Below are positions 3,701 to 64,000 of a DNA stretch of 64,000 nucleotides, piece by piece (position 1 is the first letter of the stretch; each line of letters starts with the position of its first letter). The stretch lies in the NCBI GenBank assembly GCA_951406725.2, contig CATOCA020000001.1:11284001-11348000 (forward strand). The letters are read 5' to 3'. Both the position numbers and the translations under genes were made by a program. Under the pieces are notes generated by a model that searched no databases, had not been told where the DNA came from, and saw only the letters and a list, made by a program, of their open reading frames with translations. Source of the DNA: Octopus vulgaris (Eukaryota).

Positions 3701-4576
3701 AATATGCTGCTGAACGAGGATAAATTTGAGCTAATCCACTTTGGAAAAGAGGATGCCCTGAAACTCCCATACTCCCTTCCTTCAGGTGAAACTCTCGTGG
3801 CATCCAACAACATCAGAGACTTGGGAGTAATTGTGGACAACAACATAAGCTGGGCCACTCATATAAACACCAAAGTTGACATGGCCCGCAGAATGTGTTC
3901 CTGGATTCTCAGAACTTTCCAGTCGAGAGATATCCACACCATTATCCTTCTCTTCTCCACTTTTGCCCGACCCCACCTTGAATACTGTTGTCCACTGTGG
4001 TCTCCCCACACAAAACAAAGTATTATAAAAGTTGAAGCACCCCAAAGGGCAATCACAAAAAAGATAGATGGCATGACAGGCCTCGACTATTGGGGTCGAC
4101 TAGAAAAGCTAAAACTTTATTCTCTCCAACGTCGTCGTGAGCGCTACATCATCTGCATGATGTGGAAAATATTCCATCAGCATTGCCCAAATGATGTTGG
4201 CATCACCTTTAAGGTACATCCAAGCCTTGGGCCCCGTGCCATCCGCCCAAAACAAAAATCGCACTCTCATCTCATAACAACAATACGGCACAATTATTTC
4301 ACCTCAATTGGCCCCGCTCTCTTTAACATTACACCAAAACACATTAAAACAGAAACTGACCCTATAGGGTTCAAGAAGTCTTTGGACAGATTCCTTCAAG
4401 AAATCCCGGATAAACCCCCTACACCCGGATATGTCTCTGTAAACAATAACTCTCTACTTGAGTGGGCCATAGTGCCCAAATTCTGACTTGAAAGACTTCA
4501 CCAGGTGGTGCTATTAAGTTAGACATGGCCTGGGCCAATAATGGCCGAAACCTATCAAAGTATCAAAGTATCAAAG
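773..4576 (+). mobile_element. APE-RT LINE (CR1/L2-group), copy 1; 5'-truncated within ORF1 and disrupted
   Basis: APE motifs (LNAQG, LTETHL, GDFNLP, LDLVF) and RT motifs (YRPISLTS, GVPQ, FADD). Near-identical to 48268-52909. Lesions relative to that copy: deletion near 2194, stop near 2684, deletion near 3322. Ends in (TATCAAAG)3; (TA)n on both flanks. Confidence 0.93.
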
Positions 4577-4606
4577 TATATACATACATGAATACATACA
4601 TGTATT

Positions 4607-4665
<59 letters not shown>

Positions 4666-11759: not shown

Positions 11760-13261
11760 GGCTATTTGAAAACGTTATGAAAAAATACCGTTAAAAATGA
11801 AGGGAAATTACTCTGTTATAACTCTGCTTTGCCTGCGTACTTATACATCGCTCGCATTTTTCGTCATAAAAATTATATAAAAATACATAAAAATATATAA
11901 AAACATATAAAAATATATAAAATCTTCTTGGGACATAACACAGAAAGCATGTTCTATCCGTTTTCTTTAGGGGACCAAAAACGTAACAGAAATTTAGTCA
12001 CATGTGGGCATGATCCGAAAAGCTCTGTCCTTGTATTTAGACATGTGGTAGGGTCTAAGCTGCTTTTCCAGATAAGCCATCTCTCCATGTCGCATAAACC
12101 GCACCTTCCGCTGCCGTTAGTATAGGGCTTACATCTGGCCAAAATCTTCCATTGTATGTTATAATCGACACCTTTATCTCTTAAAGACCAAATATGATTG
12201 GATAATTGTGTCGCTTTTCTTTTGTTCCAGTGCCTAAAGCTCAAAGTGTGGTTATTGAACCTGGCCTTGAAATTACCTTCTGTCAGGCCCACGTATTTCT
12301 TCGTCGAAACGGTGTCTTTAGTGGTTATAGAGTTTACGGTAGCTTCATATATGATGGTCTTGGACATGCAAGCTCCATTTAGCGGGCACAATTCTTTATT
12401 CCTGCATGAACAGCTGTTTTCTTCTTGTGTTTTTTGTATGTTATGATTGATTATGTTTTTAAAATTGGTAGTTGAACTAAAACTAATTTTTAAATTGTGT
12501 CTATTGAAGAGCTTCCTATAAGCATGGTTAACTGAAAAATGTCTATCTATCAGTGCTAGGAAATATTTACCTATATTGAAGGCCACCTCGGGTGAGTAAG
12601 GGGGCGTAAACCAGATGACCTTCCTATTTCTATTATTCCTTTTCCTTATTGTTGGGCTGGTGATAGGTGTATATTTTATTTTTTCGCTAAAACCACTATC
12701 TTTTAAAGCTTTATTATAAACTGGGGCAACGCTATTGAAGATGTCCTCATTAGATGAGAGGCTAGAAATCCTCTTACTAATATTTTTAACTAAATTTTTG
12801 AATACTATAGGGGGATGGCATGAACCTACATTAATATAACTTAGTCTATCATTGGGCTTCCTATAAGGCTTATAAATATTATTATTAAGATCTAAGGAAA
12901 CGTCTAAGAAATTGACAACCGTCAGGTTAGTGTCTATAGTTATACTAAGATGGCTTATCTGGAAAAGCAGCTTAGACCCTACCACATGTCTAAATACAAG
13001 GACAGAGCTTTTCGGATCATGCCCACATGTGACTAAATTTCTGTTACGTTTTTGGTCCCCTAAAGAAAACGGATAGAACATGCTTTCTGTGTTATGTCCC
13101 AAGAAGATTTTATATATTTTTTATATATTTTTATGTATTTTTATATAATTTTTATGACGAAAAATGCGAGCGATGTATAAGTACGCAGGCAAAGCAGAGT
13201 TATAACAGAGTAATTTCCCTTCATTTTTAACGGTATTTTTTCATAACGTTTTCAAATAGCC

Positions 13262-19878: not shown

Positions 19879-21310
19879 AGGAAATCCGTTGAGAAAAAAC
19901 AAAAACAGAACAGAGGCGGAGCAAAACAAATCGAACTAGGCTCCTAAGAGCCCATGGTCAAACTGCTTATCAGTGTATGTTGAAAACCGGTGGTGGGTGC
20001 GTTGAAGATTTTAACGGGTCAGGCAACGGTCATTCCTGTGGGTGAGGGTGTGTAGATGTTCTTTGTGACCGAGAATAAAGTTCTGACTATTAAAAGAATA
20101 TTGGATGTATTATATGGGGCGAGAAAATCTACTTAGAGACATGTGTGTGTTTACTGTTCTATATATGTGTGCTGGCGCCAGTTGGTAAGAAGCGCTAGTG
20201 ACAGTAACGCAGTTCTAATTTCAGAAACTAATCCTAGCAGAATAAGATTCACGTCGGCGAACTCCAAGATCAGAAACGCCGTCTACCAATGCAAGGTTTA
20301 CACGGACTCAGAAGTCTACGCTTATGTAGGGGCCTCATCGTCAAGATTGACTTTGCGAATCTCCAATCATTACGCAACTTTTCGAGACATGAATAAACGC
20401 CAGACCACGGGACTCAGCAAGCTAATATGGCGATTGAAGAATACGAACTCAAGCTACAGGCTGGAATGGTCAATTTTGTCGGTGGCCCTCCCATTTGATA
20501 GGGGCAGAAGGAAGTGCAACCTTTGTGTCTCCGAACTCTTCCATATATTGTTCGCCAGAGACCGGATGGTAAACGGACTTTTACAGTCGGCTTTTCGATG
20601 CCCCCATTGGCGGCGTTATACTTATCTGGCTTATAAATAACGCTTATAAATAATACCTGCACCCGGTTACACTACTTATATGAAAATAGCCCTTGGTAAT
20701 AAATTCTGAAAAAGCCTTTAAGATAATTACGATTAACCACTGCAAGGGGAATTACTCCTGTGAGATGAATGGGGCTTTGTTTTTGACGACGGGGGTTTCT
20801 TTGACAAGGCATGATTAGACGAACACACGCACACATAAAACATAAATTATTTTTCTGCCGCCCGACGGTTTTACTGCAGTGACCATTGTGTAGAGCTGTT
20901 TAACAACTGACAGTCGAGCGATCAAACGCACACACGTACACAAAAAATGTTTTCTACCCCTTGACGGAGTTCTCAGCAGTGACCAGAAAATAGCGCTTCT
21001 TACCAACTGGCGCCAGCACACATATATAGAACAGTAAACACACACATGTCTCTAAGTAGATTTTTCTCGCCCCATATAATACATCCAATATTCTTTTAAT
21101 AGTCAGAACTTTATTCTCGGTCACAAAGAACATCTACACACCCTCACCCACAGGAATGACCGTTGCCTGACCCGTTAAAATCTTCAACGCACCCACCACC
21201 GGTTCTCAACATACACTGATAAACAGTTTGACCATGGGCTCTTAGGAGCCTAGTTCGATTTGTTTTGCTCCGCCTCTGTTCTGTTTTTGTTTTTTCCCAA
21301 CGGATTTCCT

Positions 21311-21401: not shown

Positions 21402-21605
21402 AAAACGATTTCTGTTCAATCTTCGTTCAGCTCCATTTCTTCAATTCACCAGTAATATTAAAATTCAATTATCCGCACCAACGCACGGTTGCAACACCAT
21501 ATGGTTGTACCTCCAACCGTGCGGTCTTCTGCTGTGATTTTTGCTACCAAGGTATCGGTTAAACTTTTGATTAATCTGCTACAAGATTATTCATCTTTCT
21601 ATTTC

Positions 21606-21660
<55 letters not shown>

Positions 21661-21737
21661 ATGTATGTATGTATATATATATGTATGTATGTATATGTAT
21701 GTATGTATATATATATGTATGTATGTATATATATATG

Positions 21738-21772
<35 letters not shown>

Positions 21773-21871
21773 GTATATATATGTAGACACATATATATAT
21801 ATATGCATATATATATATACATATATATATATGCATATATATATATGTATATATATATATATATGTATATA

Positions 21872-23090
21872 TAGGGTCGATCACAAGATCCTATTGAAAA
21901 AACTATCCAACATTGGTGTCTCTGGAAAGTTACTGAAATGGATCAAGTGTGTCCTGACAGACAGATCTCAACATGTTGTAGTTGAAGGGGTAAAATCAAG
22001 CCCAGCCAAAGTCAGTAGTGGCGTTCCGCAAGGCACTGTGCTGGGCCCACTTCTTTTCATCATTTACATTAATGACATTAATGACATCATCAAGCACAGC
22101 AACATAAAAATCTTTGCAGATGACTCCAAGCTACAGAAGGTCATAAATGAGGCGAGTGACCGGACATGCCTTCAGTCAGATCTACTGGCTGTTATCCAAT
22201 GGGCAGAAAAAAACAATATGCTGCTGAACGAGGATAAATTTGAGCTAATCCACTTTGGAAAAGAGGATGCCCTGAAACTCCCATACTCCCTTCCTTCAGG
22301 TGAAACTCTCGCGGCGTCCAACAACATCAGAGACTTGGGAGTAATTGTGGACAACAACATAAGCTGGGCCACTCATATAAACACCAAAGTTGACATGGCC
22401 CACAGAATGTGTTCCTGGATTCTCAGAACTTTCCAGTCGAGAGATATCCACACCATTATCCTTCTCTTCTCCACTTTTGCCCGACCCCACCTTGAATACT
22501 GTTGTCCACTGTGGTCTCCCCACACAATACAAGGTATCATAAAAGTTGAAGCACCTCAAAGGGCAATCACAAAAAAGATAGATGGCATGACAGGCCTCGA
22601 CTATTGGGGTCGACTAGAAAAGCTAAAACTCTATTCTCTCCAACGTCGTCGTGAGCGCTACATCATCTGCATGATGTGGAAAATATTCCATCAGCATTGC
22701 CCAAATGATGTTGGCATCACTTTTAAGGTACATCTAAGGCTTGGGCCCCGTGCCATCCGCCCAAAACAAAAATCGCACTCTCATCTCATAACAACAATAC
22801 GGCACAATTATTTCACCTCAATTGGCCCCGCTCTCTTTAACATTACACCAAAACACATTAAAACAGAAACTGACCCTATAGGGTTCAAGAAGTCTTTGGA
22901 CAGATTCCTTCAAGAAATCCCGGATAAACCCCCTACACCCGGATATGTCTCTGTAAACAATAACTCTCTACTTGAGTGGGCCATAGTGCCCAAATTCTGA
23001 CTTGAAAGACTTCACCAGGTGGTGCTATTAAGTTAGACATGGCCTGGGCCAATAATGGCCGAAACCTATCAAAGTATCAAAGTATCAAAG
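21872..23090 (+). mobile_element. APE-RT LINE, copy 2; 5'-truncated (RT C-terminal half open to stop at 23000)
   Basis: RVDHKILL...[10 protein letters not shown]...FADD...WAIVPKF; (TATCAAAG)3 tail; inserted in (TA)n. Confidence 0.93.
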
Positions 23091-23282
23091 TATATATGTA
23101 GACACATATATATGCATATATATATATATACATATATATATATGCATATATATATATGTATATAAATATATGTATATATATATATATCTATATATATATG
23201 TATATATGTATGTATGTATATGTATGTATATACATATATATATGTATGTGTATGTATATATATATATAATATATATATAACA

Positions 23283-34217: not shown

Positions 34218-34297
34218 ACATGGAGGATTTCAGACAGAAAATTAGAAATGGTGACGTCAAAGGAATTCAAAAATTAGTGAAAAAGGATCCAACAATA
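34218..34297 (+). CDS. Ankyrin/RING (MIB2-like) gene, exon 1 of model
   Basis: Pyrimidine tract + ag|AC ATG; MEDFRQKIRNGDVKGIQKLVKKDPTI|gtaagt, phase 0. The acceptor implies an upstream exon that was not located. Confidence 0.75.
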
Positions 34298-36934: not shown

Positions 36935-37089
36935 GTTAATCCTCGAGATGTGCAGGGTCACAAACCGCTGCACTGGGCCTGTTCGTCCGGACACTTGCAC
37001 ACTGTCGACATGTTATTGGGTCACAATGGCATTGATGTCAATGTGGTGGACAAGTATGGAGACACACCACTGCATAAGGCAGTTTGGGG
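36935..37089 (+). CDS. Ankyrin/RING gene, exon 2
   Basis: tcag|[52 protein letters not shown]|gtaagt, phase 0-2; canonical ankyrin repeats. Confidence 0.92.
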
Positions 37090-38063: not shown

Positions 38064-38100
38064 CCACTGCAATGATGTTGTGTCTCTATTGCTGAACCAG
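38064..38100 (+). CDS. Ankyrin/RING gene, exon 3
   Basis: ttcag|(G)HCNDVVSLLLNQ|gtcagt, phase 2-0; completes the ankyrin repeat. Confidence 0.85.
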
Positions 38101-41528: not shown

Positions 41529-41738
41529 GGTTCAGTTCAGTTGGATATTCAGAATAAAAAGAAAATGATACCATTACTTGAAGCCGTTTCCCTGGGTCAC
41601 CTCGGAATGATACACAAGCTAATAGCCCTGGGTGCAAACATAAATGCTGTTGATAGTGAGGGTAACAGCTGTTTGCACGTTGCTGTGAAAACAGAAGTGT
41701 TTGATCCCGAGGATGCACCCTTGGATTTACTAAACGAA
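41529..41738 (+). CDS. Ankyrin/RING gene, exon 4
   Basis: aag|GSVQLDIQNKKKMIPLLEAVSLGHLGMIHKLIALGANINAVDSEGNSCLHVAVKTEVFDPEDAPLDLLNE|gtaaga, phase 0-0. Confidence 0.92.
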
Positions 41739-43361: not shown

Positions 43362-43537
43362 TGCTGCACTGCCCTTAACCTGAAAATAGAGGAAAGGCTC
43401 TCTGGTGTAGTGGTTGCGAGATATCTCGCCAACCAGGGAGCGGACTTTCATCATAAAAACAACAAAAATAACACACCATTGGACCTCATTAAGGACCCAA
43501 ATTTGAGAAAAAAATTAGAAGCATTTTTACCACCACC
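43362..43537 (+). CDS. Ankyrin/RING gene, exon 5
   Basis: tag|CCTALNLKIEERLSGVVVARYLANQGADFHHKNNKNNTPLDLIKDPNLRKKLEAFLPP|gtaagt, phase 0-2; resembles the last ankyrin region of mind-bomb proteins. Confidence 0.88.
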
Positions 43538-45364: not shown

Positions 45365-46654
45365 CGAGGGACGTTAAATAAGTAATGCCTCTTACCCACT
45401 TGCAGTTGTTTGATCTAGCTGAAATTTTGTCTGTGCAATTATTTATATCTCTATAGATTAAGTGGCAAATTACAGCTCTGAAATAATTGTGGTTTCTGAT
45501 TTACAGGTTTTTGAACCGAGTAAAGTGTGAAATGGAGCCTGTTGAGTGTCGAGCAGTGATCCGGTTTTTGTATTTGAAAGGACGCACACCACGGGAGACA
45601 TTTGATGAAATGAAAGTAACTTATGGTGATGATGCCCCATCATATGACCTTGTAAAACCCTGGCATCGTAAATTCAAACATGGTCGGAACTCTGTGGAAA
45701 CAGCTCCCAGATCTGGTCGCCCCCTTTCTGCCATTGATGAGGCATCTGTCCGTCAAGTTGAGGCTGCCATTTTGGAAGATCGACGCATAACAATTCGCCA
45801 AATAGCCCATCAGGTCAAGATTAGTACCGGGTCTGTGGAAACTATCATTCATGACCATTTGCATATGCAAAAGGTGTCTGCCAGATGGATTCCCAGGTTG
45901 CTCACACCTTTCCAGAAGCAAGAACGCGTCGAGTGCTCGAGGATGAATTTGGAGAGGTGCCAAGAAGATGAGTCAAAATTTTTGAAAAGACTGATTACAC
46001 AGGATGAAACCTGGGTCCATCACTATGATCCAGAGACCAAAGCCCAGTCAATGCAGTGGAAGCACCGTGACTCACCTCCTCCAAAGATGCAAGGGTGCAG
46101 CCCTTCGCTGGCAAGGACATGCTCATAGTCTTCAGGGACCAGGACGGAGTAGTGATGACAGATTTCCCGGCAATGGGTACCACAATTACAGGAGCCTATT
46201 ATGCTCCACTTTTGAGGAAATTAAGAGAAGCTATCAAAATCAAGAGGCGGGTCAAGATCAGAAAAATCCTCCTCCTCCTGCAGGACAACGCTCCGGTCCA
46301 CAACTCGCGTGTCGCCAGATCAGAAGCACAGGCGTGCGGCTATGAACTCCTCCCCATCCCCCTACTCTCCTGACCTTGAACCCTCTGATTTTCACCTCTT
46401 CCCAGCCATGAAGTTGTTTCTGAAGGGAAAGCGTTTCACAGATGATGCAGCCTTGATTTCTGAAGTCACGTCGTGGTTGGAGGACCAAGCTGGGGTCTTC
46501 TACAAAAACGGTCTTCAGAGCTGCATCAAACAATGGGAGAAATGCGTAACTCTGGGTGATTCCTATGTAGAAAAATACTAATAACTGTGCTAAGTTTCGT
46601 TGCTCTACTGCAATGGGAAGTGGGTCAGGGGCATTACTTATTGAACGCTCCTCG
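45365..46654 (+). mobile_element. Full-length mariner (DD34D), probably irritans-like
   Basis: TIRs CGAGGGACGTTAAATAAGTAATGCC / GGCATTACTTATTGAACGCTCCTCG, left TA intact, 1290 bp. Confidence 0.93.
45532..46581 (+). pseudogene. Mariner transposase with two frameshifts
   Basis: PRSGRP, WIPRLL, TQDETW, QDNA, YSPDLEPSDF; frame changes near 46085 and 46360. Confidence 0.92.
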
Positions 46655-48589: not shown

Positions 48590-49580
48590 ATGACTAACTT
48601 GCAGGCCTGCAACAGACGAAATTGGTCTGATAACGAAATTGATGTTTTAATAAACACATGGTTCTCTCTTTCCCAAACAGAAAATCTAAATGTTTTGTGT
48701 TTGAATGAGATTGCCGAAAAAACATCACAAGTGGTCAACACACGATCCGTCAAACAGATTCGTAACAAGCTGAAACATATAGAAGTATCTTTCAAACTGA
48801 CAAAAGGCCATTTTGAAAAGCTTCTTCATATTTTCACAGTTCAAGAACAGCAACAGCTAGAAAATCAGCAGCCACAACAACAACAACAACAGAATGAGCC
48901 ACTCCTGGTTCCCAGCACAATGGCTGACCCTAACATCGGTCAAGCACGACAACAACAACAACAGCCACAGCAACAAGAACAACAACAGCCACTCCTCAAC
49001 TCTAGCTTACTAGACGATTCACTAAATGCCAGTATCTTTTCACCGCTCTCACAGCAACCACCACAATTATCATCATCATCATCACCACCGCTGCCACCAT
49101 CGTCTTCTATCACCAAAAATACCAACAGAAAACCAAATAAGAAACCATTGCCCTCTTCCCCCACATCACCACCTCAATACTACTGCAGTAACAAAAACTT
49201 AAAGAAACATAGGAAGCAGAATGCGCCCCCACGGCACAAACAAGAAATCCCCAAATATGCCGCTATTCACTGCGCCAGAGACTCTGCACAAATAGTGACT
49301 GCATCTTCACGCATCTACCCGGCACTAGACGCACTACCGGCCAAGGCCAAAGCACGCATCCCACAATAACATCAACACCACCAAATAGTAAATCGAAATT
49401 CAAAACACACACAACTCGGAGTCCCAAAATCTGCCGGTATTCCCAACGTGAGAGAACATGTCTACTGAGTGACTGTCCCTTCACTCATCTTCCAGGGACC
49501 CGACGCACAAACAGAAACGGGGCTTCAAGCCAACACACAAACCTGAATAAAAATAAAAATAGAAACACACCATGCTGAAG
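48590..49580 (+). pseudogene. LINE ORF1: Myb/SANT-like N-terminus, polyQ/SP linker, two CCCH fingers (frameshifted)
   Basis: RRNWSDNEIDVLINTW...NEIAEK...RSVKQIRNKLKHI; CRYSLRQRLCTNSDCIFTH; CRYSQRERTCLLSDCPFTH. Confidence 0.75.
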
Positions 49581-49787
49581 TAATGCTGGTCCAGTCTTTT
49601 CAGGAAGACACAAAAACAACAACAACAAAAGTGGAAACTACAACCCTATCCAACAGTGCAACCACACCTCCAGCCAAAAACTGCTCCCTAAGCAGGAAAA
49701 TTCTTTTTTAGCCATGTTGAACATGGCAAAAGAGATACACAAAAACATTCTAGCCATCACTCAACACCATCCTATGCTATTACCCCA

Positions 49788-52700
49788 GTGCACCAATTCC
49801 CCACATTGCTGCCACTAACACACACAAAAAATCCAAGCCCCCTGCAACAGTCAAAACCAGCCACTACACTAACCTCCACATTCCTACTCAATGCACAAGG
49901 TGTCAGCCCTTCCATCAATGCACAAAAATGGAAGGTTCAATTCATTGAAGACTGGGTTGGTAACCATTCACACCACATACCTTTCTTCATTCTCACTGAG
50001 ACCCACCTTGACAACTCCCACTTGGAGGCCGAAGTGAGAGTGAAGAATTTCACAACCATCCGCGCGGATCGTATCGGCAGGAGGAAGGGTGGAACTGCCA
50101 TTTTCCTGCATGATTCATTTACGGCAGATGGAAATAGTATATTCTCCAACGGCTACTGTGAATCAGTCACCGTGCACAACAAAGCCAATGACCTGACAGT
50201 AATTGGGCTCTATAGGCTGCCCCAAACACCCATACTGTGCTTTAAAGAATGCCTCAACAGCATTAAGTGCTTTATTCAACAGTGCCATTCTAGCAACATA
50301 CTCATGATGGGAGACTTCAATCTACCCTGTGTTGACTGGACTACAAACTGTTTGAAACCAAGCACTCCCGCATCAACCGCTGACAAAGAAGCAGCAGAGT
50401 CACTTTTCGACTTTACGAATGAGTTTTTCTTGTCCCAACTTGTCCTTGCACCAACAAGACATCAGAACATTTTGGACCTAGTGTTTAGTAACCACACTAA
50501 CACTATACATAACGTTACAGTGGAAAAAACCCTTCTTTCAGACCATGACATGGTTCTCTGTAACATGAAATTCCACCAGCCGAAAGCTAATCCTAGTGAC
50601 CTTCCTCCAGCCCACCCATTTGACAACATGGATCTCCATAATGCCAACTGGGATGCAATCAGAAACGAGCTATCACATGTTGACTGGTCCTTTACACATA
50701 CACACATCTCCACCAACCATAAAACATCTTGGCAGATCTTTGTAGACACCGTCACAGACATATGTGCAAAACACTCCCCACCAAGACCTGTGAACAAAAA
50801 GTGCAGAATCCCCCAAAACAGAAAAACCATTATCAGAAAAATAAAAAGAACAAACAAAAAAATTAACAAACTAAAGTACTGCCAACAGCAACACACACAT
50901 TCGACGGCTATCGCACTGCTTGAATCCAAAAAATATAACCTCCAACAATGCATGAAGACCCTCATCAATAACCAAAGATCAGCTGAGGAGAAGTGGGCCA
51001 TTGAAAAAATCAAACTCAACCCCAAAGTGTTCTTTTCATTTGCGAGGGAATGCAGGGTCACTGTCTCCACTGTAGGCCCTCTAATTGACGAAACTGGCAC
51101 TCTCCAAGATAATGCCAAATCCATGGCCGAGATACTGCAGAAACAATACTGCTCTGTTTTCAGCAATCCTGATATGGCCGATCTGGGCTGTATCAGTGAT
51201 GTCACCCCAACACACTATATCGGACATAACGTTTAGTGCCCCTGATGTCTTAGCGGCGATAAACGAAATAAAACACAATTCAGCAGTAGGCCCCGATAGG
51301 TTCCCTGCTTGTGTCCTGAAGGTGTGTCGACACCAACTTGCATCTCCCCTTGCTAATCTGTGGAGAAACTCACTGGATGCTGGCTATATTCCAAAAACCC
51401 TTCTGTCCCAGTCTGTTGTCCCAGTTTTCAAAAAGGGAAACAAGTCCCTTGCAGTGAATTACCGTCCGATCTCACTCACCTCTCATATCATCAAGGTATT
51501 TGAGAGGGTGGTGAGATCTCGAATAACCCAATTTCTGGAAAGCAACAGACGGCTGATCTCCAACCAACATGGGTTCCGTAATGGAAGGGACTGCCTAACG
51601 CAGCTCCTGCATCACTTTGAGGACATTTTGAGAGCTTTGGGAGAGGGCTCCAACACCGATGTCATCTACCTTGATTTCAGTAAGGCCTTCGACAGGGTCG
51701 ATCACAAGATCCTATTGAAAAAACTATCCAACATTGGTGTCTCTGGAAAGTTACTGAAATGGATCAAGTGTTTCCTGACAGACAGATCTCAACATGTTGT
51801 AGTTGAAGGGGTAAAATCAAGCCCAGCCAAAGTCAGTAGTGGCGTTCCGCAAGGCACTGTGCTGGGCCCACTTCTTTTCATCATTTACATTAATGACATT
51901 AATGACATCATCAAGCACAGCAACATAAAAATTTTTGCAGATGACTACAAGCTACAGAAGGTCATAAATGAGGCGAGTGACCGGACATGCCTTCAGTCAG
52001 ATCTACTGGCTGTTATCCAATGGGCAAAAAAACAATATGCTGCTGAACGAGGATAAATTTGAGCTAATCCACTTTGGAAAAGAGGATGCCCTGAAACTCC
52101 CATACTCCCTTCCTTCAGGTGAAACTCTCGCGGCGTCCAACAACATCAGAGACTTGGGAGTAATTGTGGACAACAACATAAGCTGGGCCACTCATATAAA
52201 CACCAAAGTTGACATGGCCCGCAGAATGTGTTCCTGGATTCTCAGAACTTTCCAGTCGAGAGATATCCACACCATTATCCTTCTCTTCTTCACTTTTGCC
52301 CGACCCCACCTTGAATACTGTTGTCCACTGTGGTCTCCCCACACAATACAAGGTATCATAAAAGTTGAAGCACCTCAAAGGGCAATCACAAAAAAGATAG
52401 ATGGCATGACAGGCCTCGACTATTGGGGTCGACTAGAAAAGCTAAAACTCTATTCTCTCCAACGTCGTCGTGAGCGCTACATCATCTGCATGATGTGGAA
52501 AATATTCCATCAGCATTGCCCAAATGATGTTGGCATCACCTTCAAGGTACATCCAAGGCTTGGGCCCCGTGCCATCCGCCCAAAACAAAAATCGCACTCT
52601 CATCTCATGACAACAATACGGCACAATTATTTCACCTCAATTGGCCCCGCTCTCTTTAACATTACACCAAAACACATTAAAACAGAAACTGACCCTATAG

Positions 52701-52819
52701 GGTTCAAGAAGTCTTTGGACAGATTCCTTCAAGAAATCCCGGATAAACCCCCTACACCCGGATATGTCTCTGTAAACAATAACTCTCTACTTGAGTGGGC
52801 CATAGTGCCCAAATTCTGA
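49788..52819 (+). pseudogene. LINE ORF2 (APE endonuclease + RT), two 1-nt frameshifts
   Basis: Three overlapping ORFs. Breaks near 51204 and 52030 at positions that are intact in copies 1 and 2. Confidence 0.92.
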
Positions 52820-53665
52820 CTTGAAAGACTTCACCAGGTGGTGCTATTAAGTTAGACATGGCCTGGGCCAATAATGGCCGAAACCTATCAAAGTATCAAA
52901 GTATCAAAGTATATATATATATATATATATATGATAGATATATCATCATCAGCATCATCATCATCGTCTAACATCCGTTTTCCGTGCTAGCACGGGTTGG
53001 ACGAAAATATACATAAGTAATATTCGTAGACACGCCAACATGAGTATCTGTTCGAATGGACTCTACTGCGAATGTTTAACCCCAAGAGAACACCTCCTCT
53101 AGCTAATTAACGATGCAGAGGTGCATCCGATTAATTGCGAGCAGGGGATCGAACCCCTACGATCTTATAGCAACTGAACCAGCAGACCAGGTCTTATTTC
53201 AGGCTATTCCTGCCACTCTTCGGTACTGGACACCTCATCTGCTAATCTGTGGAGACGGGATGTATATAATAAAGTGTATATAATAAAGTATGTGTATATA
53301 AAGAAACCTGTGTAGATATATTTGTTCAGAAGAAATGAGTTCGATGTTAGAAGTGAAATATATTTCTGGAATATATGCAGTTCACTGTGTGTCAACCAAT
53401 TTCTATGATGTGTCAGGGTCAAGACAAACATTTATCAATGTATGTATGCATGTGTGTGTATGTATGTATGTGTGTGTGTTTGTGAGCATGTCATTTAACT
53501 ACACAAAAATCTGTATCTATGTAAATGTTTAAAGAAGAATTTCTGCTCTACTTTTGGTAGTTACTGATGTATCTTATAATAATATTCTCTATTCCGAACA
53601 TGTAAATAATGTAATATTTGTTATAAATGAATATTATTGATTGGATGTTTCTGTTTTGTCCACAG

Positions 53666-53804
53666 ATGTTTGTGTGCAGAAATAAAGCGGCCACAACAAA
53701 AGTCCATCCATGTGGACACCTTGTAATATGTAAGGGATGTTCAAACGTTCCACTTCAACAATGTCTGAAGTGTTTAAAACCTGTAACAAGCAGAGGTCGA
53801 GTTG
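53666..53804 (+). CDS. Ankyrin/RING gene, exon 6: C3HC4 RING (apparent 1-nt deletion near its start)
   Basis: cacag|A TGT TTG TG- TGC RNKAATTKVHPCGHLVICKGCSNVPLQQCLKCLKPVTSRGRV G|gtaaga. Confidence 0.82.
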
Positions 53805-54966
53805 GTAAGAATATTCTTTGCTGATCTGGCTGTTTGTCCTGCCTGTCCCATTGCCCTTATTGTGTAGAATAATATGCTTCATGTTATTGTGTAGAATAAT
53901 ATACTTCATGTTGTTGTGTAGACAGAGGTCTGCTATAATCTGGCAGATTTATGATAAAAGGTGTTCCTAGTGTCTGTTCTCTGTAATAGTATATCTCTCG
54001 CACTACATCCACCAAACATTGACCTTATCCAAGTAGGAAACATGTCACACTTCAAGAGGGTTGTAGTCTGCAACATAAAAATAATGGAGGATTCTGCAAG
54101 ATAATTAGTGAGTAACTGAAGTATCAATAAATCTCCATCAACTCTATAATTAATTATGAGTTATTAGAAGATAATTAAATACAACAGTACTTACAAGGAC
54201 ATCAGTGTCATCTTTGGTAAAGTATTAAAATTAGTAGAATATTTTAAAGGAGTAAAAGTTTGTGTCACCTGTGTTTGAGACTTCAACACGCAACTCCATG
54301 TTGCTGTGTTGGTCTTTGGGTGATATCAAGGCTAACAGAGACACTGTTTTGTCCGTCTCTCAAATTTAGGTTTTGGTTCTGACTTGAGTGTCACATTCCA
54401 ACCAGATCATGAAACCTTCAAATATTTCCTGAATGAGATGGCATTCTGGTGAACTGTGAAGTTAAAATTAGGGATTATCAGCAACAATGTTTAACAAAGA
54501 GATTAGGTGTATGTTTTACCTACTTGAAGTGGTTGTGACATGTGTTTGTTGTTATATCTTTGATGAATAAATTTGTTGACACTGGAATCAAACAGGTTGT
54601 TAGTCAAGATCAGGGTTTTGAAAATGCAATAGATTAGGCATAGATATAAGCAAGGAAACCAAAACATACAGATTAACTGTTATTAGGTGATAATTAAATG
54701 ATATAATTACAGCATTGTTAGATTATGTAGGATATCTTAACAGAGAGAGGAAATTTACAAAGATGAACTAGAGTTCGTTTTGGAGCTAAATATTGGCTAT
54801 TACATGGGTCCACTGTTGAAAGTATAAAAATATTGACCAAAACAATTATGATCGTCGGTTGGCCATTGATGGTATGAATGTCTCTCAATAATAAAATATA
54901 GATTATTAATAAATATAAAGGGATTGTGCTATAAATAAATATAAAACTTGGAGTCACATATTTCAG

Positions 54967-55017
54967 AGAGTCCAAAGTTTGAAGAGAAGGGAGTGCAGAC
55001 TGTGGCAGAGACAGTTG
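54967..55017 (+). CDS. Micro-exon A: (E)SPKFEEKGVQTVAETV
   Basis: tttcag acceptor, phase 1, compatible with the RING exon. Donor position reads atgagt; read-through gives DEFKIRELN* (stop ends 55046). Confidence 0.6.
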
Positions 55018-56697
55018 ATGAGTTTAAAATTAGAGAACTTAATTAATTTCTATAGATTGTACATCCACCTCAGCTATTTTGCGTATTAGAATGGTGGAGA
55101 ACAAATCCCATTTCTAATTTCCATTTGAAAGGTTAGCTCTAAAGTAATTGTATTAAAAATATGAAATTTCATAAAGTCATGGTTAACGTGTTTGGTAAAT
55201 GGATAAATTAAAAGCCACAATAGAGTTAATATTATCTTCTGGAAGCGGGAACTATAATTCTTTTTTTACGAGTAAACTCCTAAGTTAATAAGATAGTTGT
55301 TTGTTTTTCTACTGAGATTTTTCGTAAGTTTTCTGATAGGTTATTCTTGATGTTGTTATGTAGCCAGATGTCTGTCGTAATATTTTGTATTTTCTGGGGT
55401 TGTGTACCCTGAATGTCTCTGGTTAGAATACATTTTGTAGTTGCAAATTAGAAAATTATAATTAAATGTTAACTCTGTATAAGAATATTCATCATGAACT
55501 TAATTTTATTAAATGTTAAATTAAATATTGAACCGTGAATATCTGTTTATATTTAAACAAATTATTGGTGTTTATACAAAATATACAATCAGAAATTGAA
55601 TTTGACTTGAATACACAAATCCTTCTTTGTAATTATATATAATATACACTTATTACATTGTTTGAACAACATTTACCATCCATATAGTCATTCTTTTTCT
55701 CACTCTTGTTAGATTTTAGATGATATTAATGCTAAAAGAGGCACAGTTTTCTGAGTGTTTCACCCTTTGGTCTTGATTGTTGCGTTCAAATTATTTAATG
55801 AAAGTTAGTCATTGTTATTTGACCAGGAAACGAATTAATCATTAGTATTTGGCAGTGGACTTGGTTATATCTTTCTTCGTTTGCTCATGGAACTACCATA
55901 ATATTAGCTGTGCTCAGACACAATCATATTCATTGTAATGAAGGTTATATGTTCTTTACTCAGATTATATACAATCTATATTGATATCTAGTATTGCACT
56001 GTCAAGAACAGTGCCATTGTATCACATATATACCCAATTATCAAGATAATTAATAAGCTATAATTCATTAACTCTCTTACATTTGTATGTATGAAATGTA
56101 AACTTACTTTATCATAGGGACATCCTGTACCCTCACCTTACATTTTATATCTTGTTAGGGATCATGGTGGGGAAGGGTGTATGGAATTTGGCTTGTGGAG
56201 ATGATTTTTAGGGGACAGATTGTGTGCGGGGTGGAGGGTATGCACATAAAGAACATGTCTTTATGGGTTCAGTTTTACTTAATTAGAGAGGAATGTTGAT
56301 TAGTGAATTCTAGAGATGAGAGGACTGTGCCATGCCATAGATTTGGCACAGTTATAAGAAAAGAAAGACAAAGCTAAGAGAAAACTGTCATCAAGTGTTA
56401 ATTAAATGAGATAATTGGTACATTGTTAGAATATTTAATGTGTTTCTAGAGAGAGAGAGAGAGAGAGAGAGAGTGAGGGTGGATTTAGAAATGTTAGTCT
56501 GTTTTATTGTGGACATATTGGGCTATTACATGGGACCACTGTAGAAAGTACAGAAATATTGACCAAAACCATAATGGTCAACATTTGACCATTAACGACA
56601 GGAATTGAATGTCTCACAATAACAAGATAGAGTTTAATAAAAATAAAGATAAAGAAAGTTTCTTTTTAAATGTAAAACTTGGAAATATTTATTTCAG

Positions 56698-56775
56698 GGG
56701 CTCCAAAGTTTGAAGACAGGTGTGTACAAACAGAGGCTACATGTCAGGAATTAGGGGCTGCATCTCAGGCAATTG
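56698..56775 (+). CDS. Micro-exon B: (G)APKFEDRCVQTEATCQELGAASQAI
   Basis: tttcag|78 nt|gtgagt, symmetric phase 1-1. Confidence 0.7.
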
Positions 56776-57026
56776 GTGAGTATAAAATAATAGTTCTCAA
56801 TTGATTTCTCTAAGGTTTTCTTCCCCCGAGTATATTGTGCTCGAAAGAATAACTGAAAACCGCTTCCATTCCTATTTTCCAATTGAACGATTATCTGTAT
56901 AAAAATTGAATTAAAGATATCGATTTACTGTGAGTTTATGAAATACCCATTGAGGTTAATGCTGTTGGTAATAATGTTCAAATTAGAAGACACAATAGAG
57001 TTAATTTTGTCATTTGGTCACAGAAC

Positions 57027-57027
<1 letters not shown>

Positions 57028-57078
<51 letters not shown>

Positions 57079-57888
57079 TTAACATCCGTTTCTTATGGTG
57101 GCATGGGTCGGACGATTTCACTGGCAAGGCAGTAGGCTGCGTCAGGCTCCAATGTGATCTGGCAAGGTTTCCACATATGTATGCCATTCCTAACGCCAAC
57201 CACTCCGAGAGTGTGGTGGGTGCTTTTACGTGCCACCGACACAGGAGCCAGTTGAAGTTGGGGCTGGCATCGACCACGTTCGGATGGTGCTTTTTACGTG
57301 CCAACGGCACAGGGAACCAGTCAGGCGGCACTGGTAACAAACAATGTTTGAATGGTACTTATTACGTGCCACCGGCACGGATGCCAGCCAGGCGGCACTG
57401 GCATCGGCCATAATTACAATTTGCATTTTGATTTCGATCTTGATTTGATTTTGATTTGTGATTTCTGATTTTTGGTTTTACTTGACTCAGAAATTCTTCT
57501 CAAGCGCAACTTATCACTCTGTGATTCAAGGGTACTTTTAAAAAGGGCTGGTTATGCACACTGGTATAGGCTACAGCTGTGATCTCACTTCACTTGCCGG
57601 GTCCTCTTAATCACATCATATTTCCAGAGGTCTCTGTCTCTTGCCATTACCTCTGTGAGGCCCAACGTTCGAAGGTCGTTTCACCACGTCATGCCCTGTC
57701 TTCCTGGGTCACCCCTTTCCACGGGTTCGTTCCACTGTTAGGGTGTAACACTTCTTCCCACAGCTCTCCTCATCCATACACATGACAATACCAGTGCAGT
57801 TGTCTCTCTTGTACACCACATCTGATGCTTCTTATGTCTAACACTTCTCTCAGGCCTCTTCACTCTGCCTTGTGTGCACACCGACATC
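57028..57888 (-). mobile_element. RTE 3' fragment (duplicated at 59133-59966)
   Basis: (CAT)n tail, cctaacgccaaccac, ttttacgtgccacc repeats, degenerate ORF end. Confidence 0.8.
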
Positions 57889-58803
57889 GTTGAGTTCAAA
57901 TTATTTAATGAATGATAGTCATTGTTATTTGACCGGGAAATGAATTAATCATTAGTATTTGGCAGTGGACTTGGTTATATCTTTCTTCGTTTGCTCATGG
58001 AACTACCATAATATTAGCTGTGCTGAGACGCAATCATATTCATAGTAATGAAGGTTATATGTTCTTTACTCAGATTATATACAATCTATATTGATATCTA
58101 GTATTGCACCGTCAAGCACAGTGCCATTGTATCACATATATACCCAATTATCATGATAATTAATAAGCTATAATTCATTAACTCTCTTACATTTGTATGT
58201 CGGAAATGTAAACATATTTTGTCATAGGGACTTCCTGTACCCTCACCTTACATTTTATATCTTGTTAGGGATCATGTTGGGGAAGGGTGTATGGAATTTG
58301 GCTTGTGGAGATGATTTTTAGGGGACAGATTGTGTGCGGGGTGGAGGGTATGTACATAAAGGACATCTTTATGGGCTCAGTTTTACTTAATTAGAGAGGA
58401 ATGTTGATTAGTGAATTCTAGAGATGAGAGGACAGTGCCATGCCATAGATTTGGCAGTTATAAGAAAAGAAAGACAAAGCTAAGAGAAAACTGTTATCAA
58501 GTTTTAATTAAATGAGATAATTGGTACATTGTTAGAATATTTAATGTGTTCTTAGAGAGATAGATAGAGAGAGAGAGAGAGCTGGTGGATTTAGAAATGT
58601 TAGCCTGTTTTATTGTGGACATATTGGGCTATTACATGGGACCACTGTAGAAAGTACAGAAATATTGACCAAAACCATAATGGTCAACATTTGACCGGTA
58701 AGGTCACCAATTGAATGACTCACAATAACAAGATAGAGTTTAATAAAAATAAAGATGAAGAAAGTTTATTTTTAAATGTAAAACTTGGAAATATTTATTT
58801 CAG

Positions 58804-58881
58804 GGGCTCCAAAGTGTGAGGACAGGTGTGTACAAACAGAGGCTACATGTCAGGAATTAGGGGCTGCATCTCAGGCAATAG
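58804..58881 (+). CDS. Micro-exon C: (G)APKCEDRCVQTEATCQELGAASQAI
   Basis: tttcag|78 nt|gtgagt; duplicate of B. Confidence 0.7.
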
Positions 58882-60412
58882 GTGAGTATAAAATAATAGT
58901 TCCCAATTGATTTCTGTAAGGTTTTCTTCCCCCGAGTATATTGTGCTTGAAAAAATAACTGAAAACAGCTTCCATTCCTATTTTCCAATTGAACAATTAT
59001 CTGTATAATAATTGAATTAAAGATATCGATTTACTGTGAGTTTATGAAATACTCATTGAGGTTAATGCTGTTGGTAATAATGTTCAAATTAGAAGATACA
59101 ATTGAGTTAATTTTGTCATTTGGTCACAGAACTCATCATCATCATCATCATCATTTAACATCCGTTTCTTATGGTGGCATGGGTCGGACGATTTCACTGG
59201 CAAGGCAGTAGGCTGCGCCAGGTTCCAAAGGGATCTGGCAAGGTTTCCACATATGTATGCCATTCCTAACGCCAACCACTCCGAGAGTGTGGTGGGTGCT
59301 TTTTACGTGCCACCGACACAGGAGCCAGTTGAAGTTGGGGCTGGCATCGACCACGTTCGGATGGTGCTTTTTACGTGCCAACGGCACAGGGAACCAGTCA
59401 GGCGGCACTGGCAACAAACAATGTTTGAATGGTACTTATTACGTGCCACCGGCACGGGTGCCAGCCAGGCGGCACTGGCATCGGCCATAATTACAATTTG
59501 CATTTTGATTTCGATCTTGATTTGATTTTGATTTGTGATTTCTGATTTTTGGTTTTACTTGACTCAGAAATTCTTCTCAAGCGCAACTTATCACTCTGTG
59601 ATTCAAGGGTACTTTTAAAAAGGGCTGGTTATGCGACACTGGTATAGGCTACAGCTGTGATCTCACTTCACTTGCCGGGTCCTCTTAATCACATCATATT
59701 TCCAGAGGTCTCTGTCTCTTGCCATTACCTCTGTGAGGCCCAACGTTCGAAGGTCGTTTCACCACGTCATGCCCTGTCTTCCTGGGTCACTCCTTTCCAC
59801 GGGTTCGTTCCACTGTTAGGGTGTAACACTTCTTCCCACAGCTCTCCTCATCCATACACATGACAATACCAGTGCAGTTGTCTCTCTTGTACACCACATC
59901 TGATGCTTCTTATGTCTAACACTTCTCTCAGGCCTCTTCACTCTGCCTTGTGTACACACTGACATCGTTGCGTTCAAATTATTTAATGAATTAATCATTA
60001 GTATTTGGCAGTGGACTTGGTTATATCTTTCTTCGTTTGCTCATGGAACTACCATAATATTAGCTGTGCTGAGACACAATCATATTCATTGTAATGAAGG
60101 TTATATGTTCTTTACTCAGATTATATACAATCTATATTGATATCTAGTATTGCACCGTCAAGCACAGTGCCATTGTATCACATATATACCCAATTATCAT
60201 GATAATTAATAAGCTATAATTCATTAACTCTCTTACATTTGTATGTCTGAAATGTAAACTGATTTTGTCATAGGAACATCGTGTACCCTCACCTTACATT
60301 TTATATCTTGTTAGGGATCATGTTGGGGAAGGGTGTATGGAATTTAGCTTGTGGAGATGTTTCTTAGGGGACAGATTGTGTGCGGGGTGGGGGGTATGCA
60401 CATAAAGGACAT

Positions 60413-60885
60413 CCCTTGATGGCCTCGATGTCACTTAGCCAGTTGGGTCTTTTCAAGCACAGAAAATTGCTGATTGTCTCAGTCGTTTTAGTTATCTTCC
60501 GTGTGAAGCTCAGCATCTGAACATCATTTCTCACCACTTTGTCCCATGTCTTTCTCAGTCTTCCTCTTCCTCAGCTTCTCTCCACATTTAGAGATCCGCA
60601 TCTCTTTATGCTGATCACCTCATCCATATGCATCACATAACCATACTATGAAAGATCTCTCTTTTGAACTCTACATCGGATGACTCTTATACCCAGATTT
60701 GCTCTTAAGACATTTCCACTGTGACTTACCTGTACACTGATGTTGTACATCCAGTGGAGCATGCTGGCTTCATTTGTCTCCAACCCTTTGCATGTCTTCT
60801 ATCTTCACAGCTTATCTTTCATTATTGTGTTGTACATCTGTCCGTACACAAGTCTCATACAATCTGCTTTCCACTCTTAGGGAGA
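60413..60885 (-). mobile_element. Degenerate RTE ORF C-terminus
   Basis: Minus strand resembles the GRGRPRKTW and LRWYGHV region; similar to 57480-57885. Confidence 0.55.
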
Positions 60886-61028
60886 AGCCCTTCGTTACCT
60901 ACAGAGTGGGGGCTTTTGGGACGGTTAATCTTGACTATTGGTTATAGGAATATTTCACAATTATAAAATATCGATGTTCATTAAAGAAATTTTACTATAA
61001 AGTATAATCTTGGAAATATTTAATTCAG

Positions 61029-61079
61029 CAAGGCCAATATTTGAAGACAAAGAGGTCCAGACAGTAGAAGAGCCACGTG
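61029..61079 (+). CDS. Micro-exon D: (A)RPIFEDKEVQTVEEPR
   Basis: attcag acceptor, 51 nt like A. Donor position reads ctgagt; read-through gives AEYRMTLHN*. Confidence 0.55.
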
Positions 61080-61529
61080 CTGAGTATAGAATGACATTAC
61101 ATAATTGATTTCTATAAAGGTTAGCTTTTACTGAGCTATTTTGGTCAATAGAATGACCGAGAACAGGTTCCACTGCTACATTTCATTTGAATGCTTAGCT
61201 ATAAAGAAATTCTGTTCTTCTACAACAACACGAATATCCAATAAATGTACTTTATGCAAACATCAGTTACTCATTCACTCGCAGAAAGAAAGATTCAAAA
61301 ATTAAATATAAACCCTGAAACGGTTCTCTCCCGTTAAGGAGAATATTCGCCCTGTTTGTCATCTCATTGTACTCATTCATTCTCTCTCTCTCACTCATGC
61401 TCTTTCTCTCCGTCTTTTCAAGAAAGATGCTGGTTAATAGTTTCAATACAATAAATGATATCATCCTCATCTTTTCTCATCTGCTCTCCATGCTCCCATA
61501 CACTAGGTGGGTCATCACTGTCCAAGTCA

Positions 61530-64000
61530 GTTGTATCTGAAATTACTGCCAACCGTCATTTGTTGAGGAAAACATCTCACTTAAACATTGCAGCTTTTCT
61601 AAGGTGGTAGACCCTTTCTAACCCCAACCACTTTATAAAGGGTCCTGGGTATATTTTATTGTCGCACAAGCATTAGAAATGATCATCAATTTCCCAACAA
61701 TATCAAACGTTCCTTTCAAACTTGTGGTGTCATCTTTCCTAGTTTCCAACAACCACTTCCTAGTGTGTTCTGGGAGCATTTAATTATAGCACAAGTAGTA
61801 ATCAAGTTGTGTTACATTCTACATAATTAGACGGTCCTCACTACTCTATGATGTTTTGGTTCACTGAAGCTGATGACATTTTCAGGAGGTGAGAAGGGAA
61901 TGTGATGACAAAAGAATCAGGATGGGGGAGAGAAATTTGCAATACCCCCTCTCCCGGCTGTGGGTCTTTGTCTTACATGTCTTTTGGCTAAATATGCCAG
62001 TACTTGTGCTTTACACAAAGGGGCCACGTACACTCTGTGAGGTGGTTGGCATCAATAAGAGCATCCTACCATAGAAAACCATGCCAAAGAAACCATCTGG
62101 GGCCTGGTGCAGTTGTCTGGCTTGTCAGATCCTGTCAAGATTTCCAACCCATTCCAGCATGGAAAACAAACTTTGAATGTTGATGATGATGATGATGATG
62201 ATGCTGTCTTCCAGTAACTCATCATAATTCTTTGTCTTAGATTGTTACAGTAGTTTCCTGTCTGGTATAAAATATTAGCTCAGTATAATAATAGCGATTG
62301 TGAAAACCGGTTCAGTGATTTTGATAACATTCATATTGAACAGAGAACATATGTTCACATTTGAACAAAACATTGATGCTAACATATGCAATACATGGAA
62401 AGGAATGAACGTATGAGATTCCAGTGTGACTTGAACTCACAACTCTTTTCTAACTATATATATATAATTATCGCTTGTTACTGATGTTTTTAGAATAACG
62501 TCTACTGTCCATATATAGAACTGTCGTTATACTGACAATATGTTGGCTTTGAGATATAGTTTCAATTGTAGAGAGTCACTGTTTTCCGTCTTTCACATTT
62601 TGGTTTTACTTCCGACTTGATTGTTGTTGAAGATTAGATCATGGAACCTGGTCATTGTTATTTGACCAAGAAAAGAATTCATCATTCATGTAATCGGTAC
62701 TGAAATGGTTACATTTTTCTATGGTTTCTATATGGAACTACCATAATATCATGTTGCTGAGACACAACCATATTAATTGTAACAAATGTCATGTTCTTCA
62801 CACAGATTTTATACAATCTATAATTGATAGTTAGTCATTTATATGCCGCATTAACATGATAATTAATCAGCTATCATTCATTAACTCTCTTAAACTTGTA
62901 TGTGTAAGATGTTTCATAGCATTATCTTTTACAATTAATATGGTTAAACAATCTCCAGCACAGTTGATATTATAGTAGTTATGAAACCACTTGAAAAATG
63001 TAACCATTTCCAATTTCGATCTCATGTACCCAGGTTCCATGATCTAATTTCAACATAACTGAGTCGGAAGTAAAACCAAAGCAATTGACTCTCTACAATT
63101 GAAACCATCTCAAAGCCAACAATTAATCAGTATAACAGTAAAATATATGGACAGTAGACGTTATTCAAACGTCGTAACAAGCGTGCAATTATACTTGTAC
63201 TGTAGTTAGAAAGAGTTATGAGTTCAAGTCACACTGGAATCCATACGTTCATTCCCTTTTCATGTATTGCATATGTTGGCATCAATGTTTTGTTCAAATA
63301 ATGAACATATGAATGTTATCAAAATCTAGACCGGTTTTCACAATCATATTATACTGAGCTAATATTTTGTGACTCTGTAACAATCTAAGACAAAGATTAT
63401 GATGAGTTACTGGAAGACAGCATCATCATCATCATCATCATCAATCATTCAAGACTGTTTCCATGCTGGAATAGGTGGGAAATCTTGACAGAATCTGATA
63501 AGCCAGACAACACCAGACTGAATGTTTCTTTAATGATTTCTATGGTAGGATGCTCTTATTGATGCCAACCACCCTGCACAGGTAACGTGGCTTACTGTGA
63601 AGCACAGAATACTATGTGGCAAAGGTATGGTGGAGCCCACGGCAGGGAAGGGGGCTATGGTTTAACATGTCACGACCCTTCTCACCCTTCACCAGATGTC
63701 ATCGAAGCTGTGAACCAAAGGCTGTAGTGAGGACAAATCCCTAATTATGTAGAATGTAACACTACTTGTGCTATAATTAAATGCTCCCAGAACACTTAGG
63801 AGTGGTTGTTGGAAACTAGGGGAAGATGACACCTAGGTGAGAACGTTTGATATTGTTGGGAAATTGATGATCGGCTAATGTATTCTTGACAATATACTTA
63901 GGACAAAGTGGTTAAGTAGGTGCACACTGCAGAAAACACATGTAGAGTGGATGTTTTCCTCAACAAATGACAGTTGTAACCAGATACAGATGAATATATG
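61530..64000. repeat. Large inverted duplication (arms ~61530-62650 and ~63030-64000)
   Basis: Colinear reverse-complement match, e.g. gctgtcttccagtaactcatcata / tatgatgagttactggaagacagc. The right arm has many small deletions. Confidence 0.88.

Follow-up and report, generated by a model that had tools for sequence, protein, structure and literature searches.

What is a row of short, homologous coding units doing behind the RING exon of an ankyrin-repeat gene? The question is raised by a stretch of Octopus vulgaris DNA of 64,000 nucleotides (assembly GCA_951406725.2, contig CATOCA020000001.1, positions 11,284,001 to 11,348,000 of the forward strand), which we call the window and from whose first letter all positions below are counted. 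Four such units lie at 54967-61079. An earlier note, made from the letters alone, took them for exons encoding binding motifs for the dimerisation hub LC8, whose copy number or splicing would tune the LC8 valency of a MIB2-like ligase. We find, with high confidence, that the window locus is a broken gene copy. The account that we favour, by no wide measure, takes the array for the leftover linker of that copy and has intact paralogs likely offering a variable number of docking sites at which LC8 would zip up a pair of chains.

The array and its gene copy

Direct reading bears out the four homologous units behind AG acceptors (54967, 56698, 58804 and 61029; Table 1). Read in phase 1, units 1 to 4 yield the peptides that had been reported, PKFEEKGVQT, PKFEDRCVQT, PKCEDRCVQT and PIFEDKEVQT, in which VQT is kept despite synonymous change, three different codon sets encoding it across the four units. 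The pattern K/R-x-V/T-Q-T is by itself not rare (about three more matches, counted by eye, among the window's six-frame matches); four motifs at one codon offset behind homologous acceptors reflect common descent and not chance. The flank homology described at about 54790, 56520, 58625, 60995 and 62650 is real in sequence comparison. Duplications of different ages are also present, units 2 and 3 being 94% identical over 2.6 kb (55776-58389 against 57886-60437) and the older units 65-75%, but all four unit types are older than the window locus and recur in paralogs in the same order.

To call all four units exons was half right. Units 2 and 3 keep their GT donors and are symmetric cassettes (AG/GT ends, length a multiple of 3); units 1 and 4 carry AT and CT in place of GT and are not. 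The donor of the unit-1 type is AT in 15/15 copies seen, and this type was therefore dead before these loci split. In five copies of the unit-4 type the donor is CT in three and GT in two, and in the gene models P0064 and P0105 it is read through and forms the last exon.

The ankyrin exons and the putative first coding exon of the window gene (beginning at 34220, 36935, 38064, 41529 and 43362) join in frame, and the reading arrives at the RING exon in phase 2. The units had been described as sharing the phase of the RING donor. This fails in the window, where the donor of exon 5 is of phase 2; the RING exon, of 139 nt, is read out of frame, meets a stop and hands on phase 0. The RING exon is 140 or 143 nt long in 25 of 30 loci examined and stop-free in 19 of the 30. 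Pfam PF13920 matches the window exon in the shifted frame (E 1.8e-7), and the public model P0085 terminates at the window's RING stop. A stop lying 78 nt before the end of its exon invites, by the usual rule, nonsense-mediated decay. We considered that the frameshift might be a lone sequencing error and rejected this explanation, as the inverted arm described below has the same frameshift.

Homology of the window locus to four close paralogs stops at 62932. Beyond this point lies an inverted copy, about 90% identical to 49110-62651, which has a further RING exon with a frameshift, three units and no ankyrin exons; the RING frameshift is common to both arms of the inversion (L025 and L028). An imperfect inverted repeat of 2.2 kb (72%, 61681-63872) lies in the middle of the larger fold-back duplication, at the point where the gene breaks off. 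None of four runs covered 63079-63200 behind the break, which speaks neither for nor against an inversion private to the assembly. With seven family proteins as queries, no death-domain exon came up in the window or in the next 40 kb, and no open frame runs through RING, linker and both death-domain exons, as it would in an intact member of the family. With a frameshifted RING, two dead donors and no death domain, the locus likely makes no such protein, and the proposed tuning of a ligase by LC8 valency fails at this place; the array tunes nothing here because it lies in a decayed copy.

A family with a C-terminal death domain

Public protein models of full-length members have the order ankyrin, RING, linker repeats, death domain. 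The description as an ankyrin-RING ligase had thus overlooked the C-terminal death domain. Named Octopus proteins make up 105 of the 120 listed profile matches, the remaining 15 being weak ankyrin matches; a search of the atlas gave matches all below 0.9, and in one further search 7 of the 10 top matches looked up were named Octopus. The 78-nt unit has 270 candidate matches, and the 40 that were scored are all at least 95% alike. Among 12 family proteins scanned, PF00531 (Death) is above cut-off in four (P0003, P0022, P0146, P0148), weaker in four and absent from four. Death-domain exon 2 takes at least 91 of the 150 scored matches of P0101 (counted by eye), and the Octopus vulgaris genome holds about 90 death-domain exons of the family. 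Our census of units covered 34 locus stretches of 10-50 kb and comprises 127 units, that is 102 linker units and 25 first death-domain exons. Live linker units (AG/GT ends, in-frame length) number 75 by hand count, of which 56 encode x-Q-T, and a locus has 0 to 6 live motif exons. RING exons are broken in 11/30 loci, which points to rapid birth and death. A description of the family was not found in the literature searched, which excluded most subscription journals, and a search with P0043 residues 60-200 returned no long relatives.

Several members depart from this plan. Five paralogs (L039-L043) have in common a stop where the first cysteine of the RING would be encoded. Neither linker units nor a first death-domain exon were called in them, and death-domain exon 2 stands close behind the RING. 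In P0006, P0042, P0074, P0084 and P0039-P0041 fusions are modelled (leucine-rich repeats, PF18571, a long C-terminal region), the fused domains standing in place of or beside the death domain. Related death domains occur in P0166, P0193 and P0045 behind other, motif-free linkers of Ser/Thr-rich repeats; repeat linkers therefore arose more than once.

The front half of the family can be traced to MIB2. In the animal's own two-RING MIB2 gene (C26), the two last ankyrin exons match those of the family, and the first RING matches the family RING; for P0011 the E values are 2e-15 and 5e-10 for the two ankyrin exons and 2e-10 for the first RING. The RING exon of the family and the first-RING exon of MIB2 have a phase-1 donor in common, first-RING identity is 45-50% for P0003 and P0011 and 36% for two O. 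bimaculoides proteins, and the last ankyrin of the paralog P0018 matches PDB 8v0e (E 3.4e-5). Four family proteins gave no tblastn match at E<0.05 to the last RING of the MIB2 gene or of the three-RING MIB1 gene (C13); the death domain occupies the place of MIB2's second RING. The N-terminal MIB-HERC2/ZZ and REP domains have no Pfam match in the family proteins scanned or among the matches listed, and 0/10 PF06701 matches lie on C31, all being on other contigs.

These correspondences bear on the idea of a ligase activated by dimerisation, which we regard as doubtful. In active RINGs a Pro and an Arg stand around the last Cys; the RING of the window clade has Leu at both positions. In MIB1 the residues are P993/R996; its ANK-RING1-2 part is largely a monomer that fails to ubiquitinate itself, and it is the coiled coil and RING3 that provide dimerisation and activity (bioRxiv 10.1101/2024.03.01.582834). 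A first-RING mutant of human MIB2 still ubiquitylates cFLIP-L, the second RING being required (PMC7815719). The RING retained by the family is the counterpart of this dispensable first RING and the catalytic one is unmatched, and therefore the word ligase is an annotation and not a finding. The family members are likely to be death-domain adaptors with little or no ligase activity of their own and not tuned ligases.

Where did the linker exons come from? The earlier note was silent on their ancestry, and the answer was given by the death domain. The first death-domain exon is a 72-nt exon of phase 1-1, and it is homologous, flanks included, to the linker units. Built on nothing but the four window units, a DNA profile recovers 25/25 first death-domain exons (E 5.6e-8 to 1.7e-25). 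Between linker units and death-domain exon 1, ungapped identity is 0.46 over the first 45 exon bases, against 0.26 for shuffled sequence; upstream of the acceptor it is 0.66. The most similar linker and death-domain exon are 69% identical, the latter already having Lys at -3, Leu at -1, Gln at 0 and Asp at +1. Several linker types have kept the length of 72 nt, one of them a decayed copy without motif. We are therefore highly confident that the linker micro-exons are tandem copies of death-domain exon 1. The direction, from death-domain exon to linker exon, is argued from the death domain being the older fold; a tree of the flanks (243 columns, with 7 of the 102 linker units excluded as not alignable) separates the types, not their order, and gives no root or direction.

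Proposed LC8 docking and its rivals

Natural LC8 sites follow [D/S]-K-x-[T/V/I]-Q-[T/V]-[D/E] and lie in disordered segments (PMC3078936), and the anchor is the Gln with its flanking Thr (PMC12057147). Units 1, 2, 3 and 4 fit 4, 5, 5 and 5 of the six specified positions, and units 2 and 3 have at -3 the Arg known from the phage-display version of the motif. A peptide of LCA5 that has unit 1's residues from -3 to +1 binds LC8 with a Kd of 2.6 uM (PMC9481538). LC8 itself is encoded in the genome, on C25 at 23.63 Mb, and nearly identical to the solved DYNLL2. The linker between the Pfam RING and Death matches has no Pfam match.

Are the motif codons constrained? Across 17 live exon types Q is kept in 15, V in 14, K in 13 and T in 12, and pN/pS is 0.36-0.43 at motif codons against 0.90 at the other nine codons (17 types, 136 pairs). 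With the residues unchanged, the motif draws on all four codons for Val and on both for Gln and for Lys. When sister types are pooled into 11 groups, each of the four core residues taken together survives in 34-38 cases out of 44, against an expectation under neutrality that falls from 31 to 24 as divergence rises; P for this excess is below 0.005 at the two highest divergence estimates. For the four best non-motif positions the corresponding figure is 24-31, mostly compatible with neutrality. Since the test is pairwise with a star-shaped null, and is limited by non-independent pairs, gene conversion and possible splicing enhancers, we speak of moderate apparent constraint on the motif codons. 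A predicted complex of two LC8 and two 56-residue linkers of P0018 scored a median of 0.35, against 0.33 for the control. An LC8 docking function of the linker exons is, in our estimate, somewhat better than an even proposition. The LC8 reading of the motif can be carried over from the earlier note as a hypothesis for the family, given the fit to the pattern and the moderate constraint, and is given up for the window locus.

That the cassettes are spliced is seen in runs which are only guessed to be RNA, through contigs at 90% likeness that speak for the family and cannot be assigned to one paralog. Joints from the RING to the 78-nt type (GT..AG, unit 1 being skipped) and from one 78-nt unit to the next occur in 3/3 RNA-like runs from three studies and in 0/1 DNA run, and a joint from the 78-nt type to the unit-4 type in 1/2 RNA-like and 0/2 DNA runs. 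Among the joints listed in RNA-like runs none involves unit 1. Splicing from the RING donor to each of the units, as had been predicted, consequently stands at the family level for the 78-nt type and not for unit 1. We also entertained the possibility that all four units are alternative last exons; it is ruled out by the tandem 78-nt joints, which mean internal use. Isoform models give an O. bimaculoides gene with 4, 3 and 2 motifs and two O. sinensis sets with 0-2 and 0-4, models that rest on near-identical exons and may mix paralogs. Variation in exon number, the other half of the tuning proposal, is thus found among paralogs and isoform models, not at the broken window locus.

If these lines are put together, the following history can be suggested. 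A piece of MIB2, its last ankyrin repeats and first RING, captured a death domain in the place of the second RING, with loss of the dimerising catalytic end. K/R-x-V-Q-T may then have arisen through a small number of point mutations in helix 1 of the death domain, and unequal crossing-over would have amplified the cassette. Dimers of LC8 on pairs of motifs may then substitute for the dimerising coiled coil that went with the catalytic RING, and the number of exons and their skipping would determine how avidly such a death-domain signalling adaptor binds. In its boldest form, which we offer tentatively and would not wager on, the roughly 90 paralogs, with 0-6 cassettes and free skipping, might be combinatorial LC8-zipped adaptors in which exon count determines the oligomerisation threshold, with a linear motif born from a folded-domain exon and all intermediates still in the genome. 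If true, the family would provide a traceable origin of a linear motif from a folded-domain exon and a natural valency series (0-6 sites) for relating LC8 multivalency to assembly. Some 90 octopus genes annotated as MIB2-like ligases have a death domain and no catalytic RING, and so become candidate cell-death or immune adaptors.

A good deal weighs against LC8-zipped adaptors, and much of it is what one would expect if the cassettes were by-products of unequal crossing-over serving as spacers of variable length, the motif being inherited from an early duplicate or acting as a splicing enhancer, and LC8 playing no part. The x-Q-T is absent from 19 of the 75 live linker exons and retained in 24/27 dead units, and whole arrays lack it (P0015, P0039, P0145, P0150); amplification therefore does not require the motif. 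Non-motif codons are near neutral, as the pN/pS of 0.90 indicates, the excess conservation of the core is marginal at the lowest divergence estimate (P 0.015-0.24), and birth and death are rapid. Some death-domain exons already have K (7/12 types) or Q (3/12 types) at the motif positions, D at -4 and D/E at +2 are each found in only 7/17 types, and the splice evidence has the family-level scope given above. Spacers alone would not explain why motif codons vary synonymously while their residues persist, why neutrality accounts for the four best non-motif positions and for the most part not for the motif, why an O. bimaculoides gene has the motif four times with different exons, or why the conserved positions coincide with an independently published LC8 pattern. 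We consider the spacer explanation unlikely, though it deserves to be kept in mind.

The two remaining explanations retain more of the tuned ligase or of the window locus. Moved to intact paralogs, the original model would make the single RING an active ligase that LC8 dimerisation switches on according to motif number. Motifs do begin directly behind the RING, the nearest solved RING structures are dimer-type IAP RINGs (E 3.5e-4 to 1e-2), and Pro and Arg/Lys stand around the last Cys in several paralogs, those with Pro and Arg counting against our reading as well, since the family is not necessarily uniformly inactive. The activity of MIB1 also stems from a dimeric RING (bioRxiv 10.1101/2024.03.01.582834). 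But the RING is the counterpart of MIB2's first, the mutation of which leaves human MIB2 active (PMC7815719), the window clade has its two Leu, and the window locus is unable to make a RING in frame; an active ligase seems to us improbable. Less likely still is continued use of the window locus itself, by skipping of exon 5 and joining of a phase-0 donor to the 139-nt exon, which would restore the rest of the RING and units 2-4. The truncated product would lack the first zinc ligand as well as a death domain and would be a decoy or an LC8 sponge. Exon phases permit such skipping, the P0005 model skips ankyrin exons, and there are the unit-4 read-through ends of P0064 and P0105; no such joint was seen, however, though no search aimed at it was made, among the loose ends listed from RNA-like runs those from exon 5 to the RING carry paralog letters, and several independent lesions indicate decay. 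We thus return to LC8-zipped adaptors as the preferred reading of the intact paralogs.

Known systems, features and neighbouring elements

How does the family compare with systems already known? It resembles MIB2 and MIB1 in its last ankyrin repeats and first RING (45-54% identity to the genome's own MIB2), and databases name its members MIB1/MIB2-like. It differs in that no listed family protein has the substrate-binding MZM/REP part (no PF06701), in lacking a C-terminal catalytic RING or coiled coil, and in having a repeat linker and death domain in about 90 copies, of which the window copy is broken. ASCIZ, KANK1 L2 and GKAP are reportedly multivalent LC8/DYNLL clients, and with these and LCA5 the family shares several short LC8-pattern motifs in a low-complexity linker between folded domains; its own sites are predicted, come one to each duplicated cassette exon of death-domain origin, and vary in number by paralog and isoform. 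Oyster IAPs are said to be a lineage-specific mollusc expansion with new domain architectures. Tandem birth and death with many broken copies, shuffled domains and other fusions (P0006, P0074, P0084) recall such death-fold and RING immune expansions of molluscs, with the difference that the octopus family was built from MIB2 and not from an IAP (no BIR domain is listed). An immune role for it is a guess.

Table 1. Features of the window locus (positions from the first letter of the window)
Feature	Position	Strand	Remarks
Putative first coding exon, 26 codons, phase 0 donor	34220..34297	+	ATG, GT donor, in frame with next exon; absent from P0085
Ankyrin-repeat exon	36935..37089	+	tblastn to family proteins 68-73%; frame
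Ankyrin exon of 37 nt, phase 2 to 0	38064..38100	+	frame, tblastn to family proteins
Ankyrin exon, phase 0 to 0	41529..41738	+	counterpart of second-last MIB2 ankyrin exon
Last ankyrin exon (exon 5), ends in phase 2	43362..43537	+	counterpart of last MIB ankyrin repeat
RING exon, 139 nt, MIB2 first-RING type, frameshifted	53666..53804	+	one base short near start
Premature stop in spliced frame	53724..53726	+	78 nt before RING exon end
Unit 1, 51-nt pseudo-exon with VQT motif	54967..55017	+	donor AT at 55018; acceptor AG
Young 2.1-kb tandem duplication with units 2 and 3	55776..60437	+	94% identity
Unit 2, 78-nt phase 1-1 exon with VQT motif	56698..56775	+	AG/GT intact
Unit 3, 78-nt phase 1-1 exon with VQT motif	58804..58881	+	AG/GT intact
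Unit 4, 51-nt exon with VQT motif	61029..61079	+	donor CT at 61080; usable only as last exon
Fifth-unit lead-in	62333..62932	+	unit homology 62333-62912; cut at 62932
Start of 13-kb inverted duplicate of 49110-62651	63030..64000	-	extends to 76007 counted from window start

The surroundings of the gene are rich in mobile elements. Three copies of an element with endonuclease- and reverse-transcriptase-like frames (49110-52943, 1240-4613, 21462-23125) are, as we assume from their motifs, a non-LTR retrotransposon; one such copy sits in the intron before the RING exon, inside the inverted duplication. Penelope-like reverse transcriptase and GIY-YIG-like frames occur at 5438-7659, 11954-13120 and 20137-20640. 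The N-terminus of P0085 has been taken from the frame at 6520-7659, probably an annotation artefact. A transposase in several broken frames, presumably mariner-like, lies at 45487-46581. Directly behind the inverted arm stand long tandem satellite arrays (L022-L024, at 76108-91826 and 96000-104000 from the window start).

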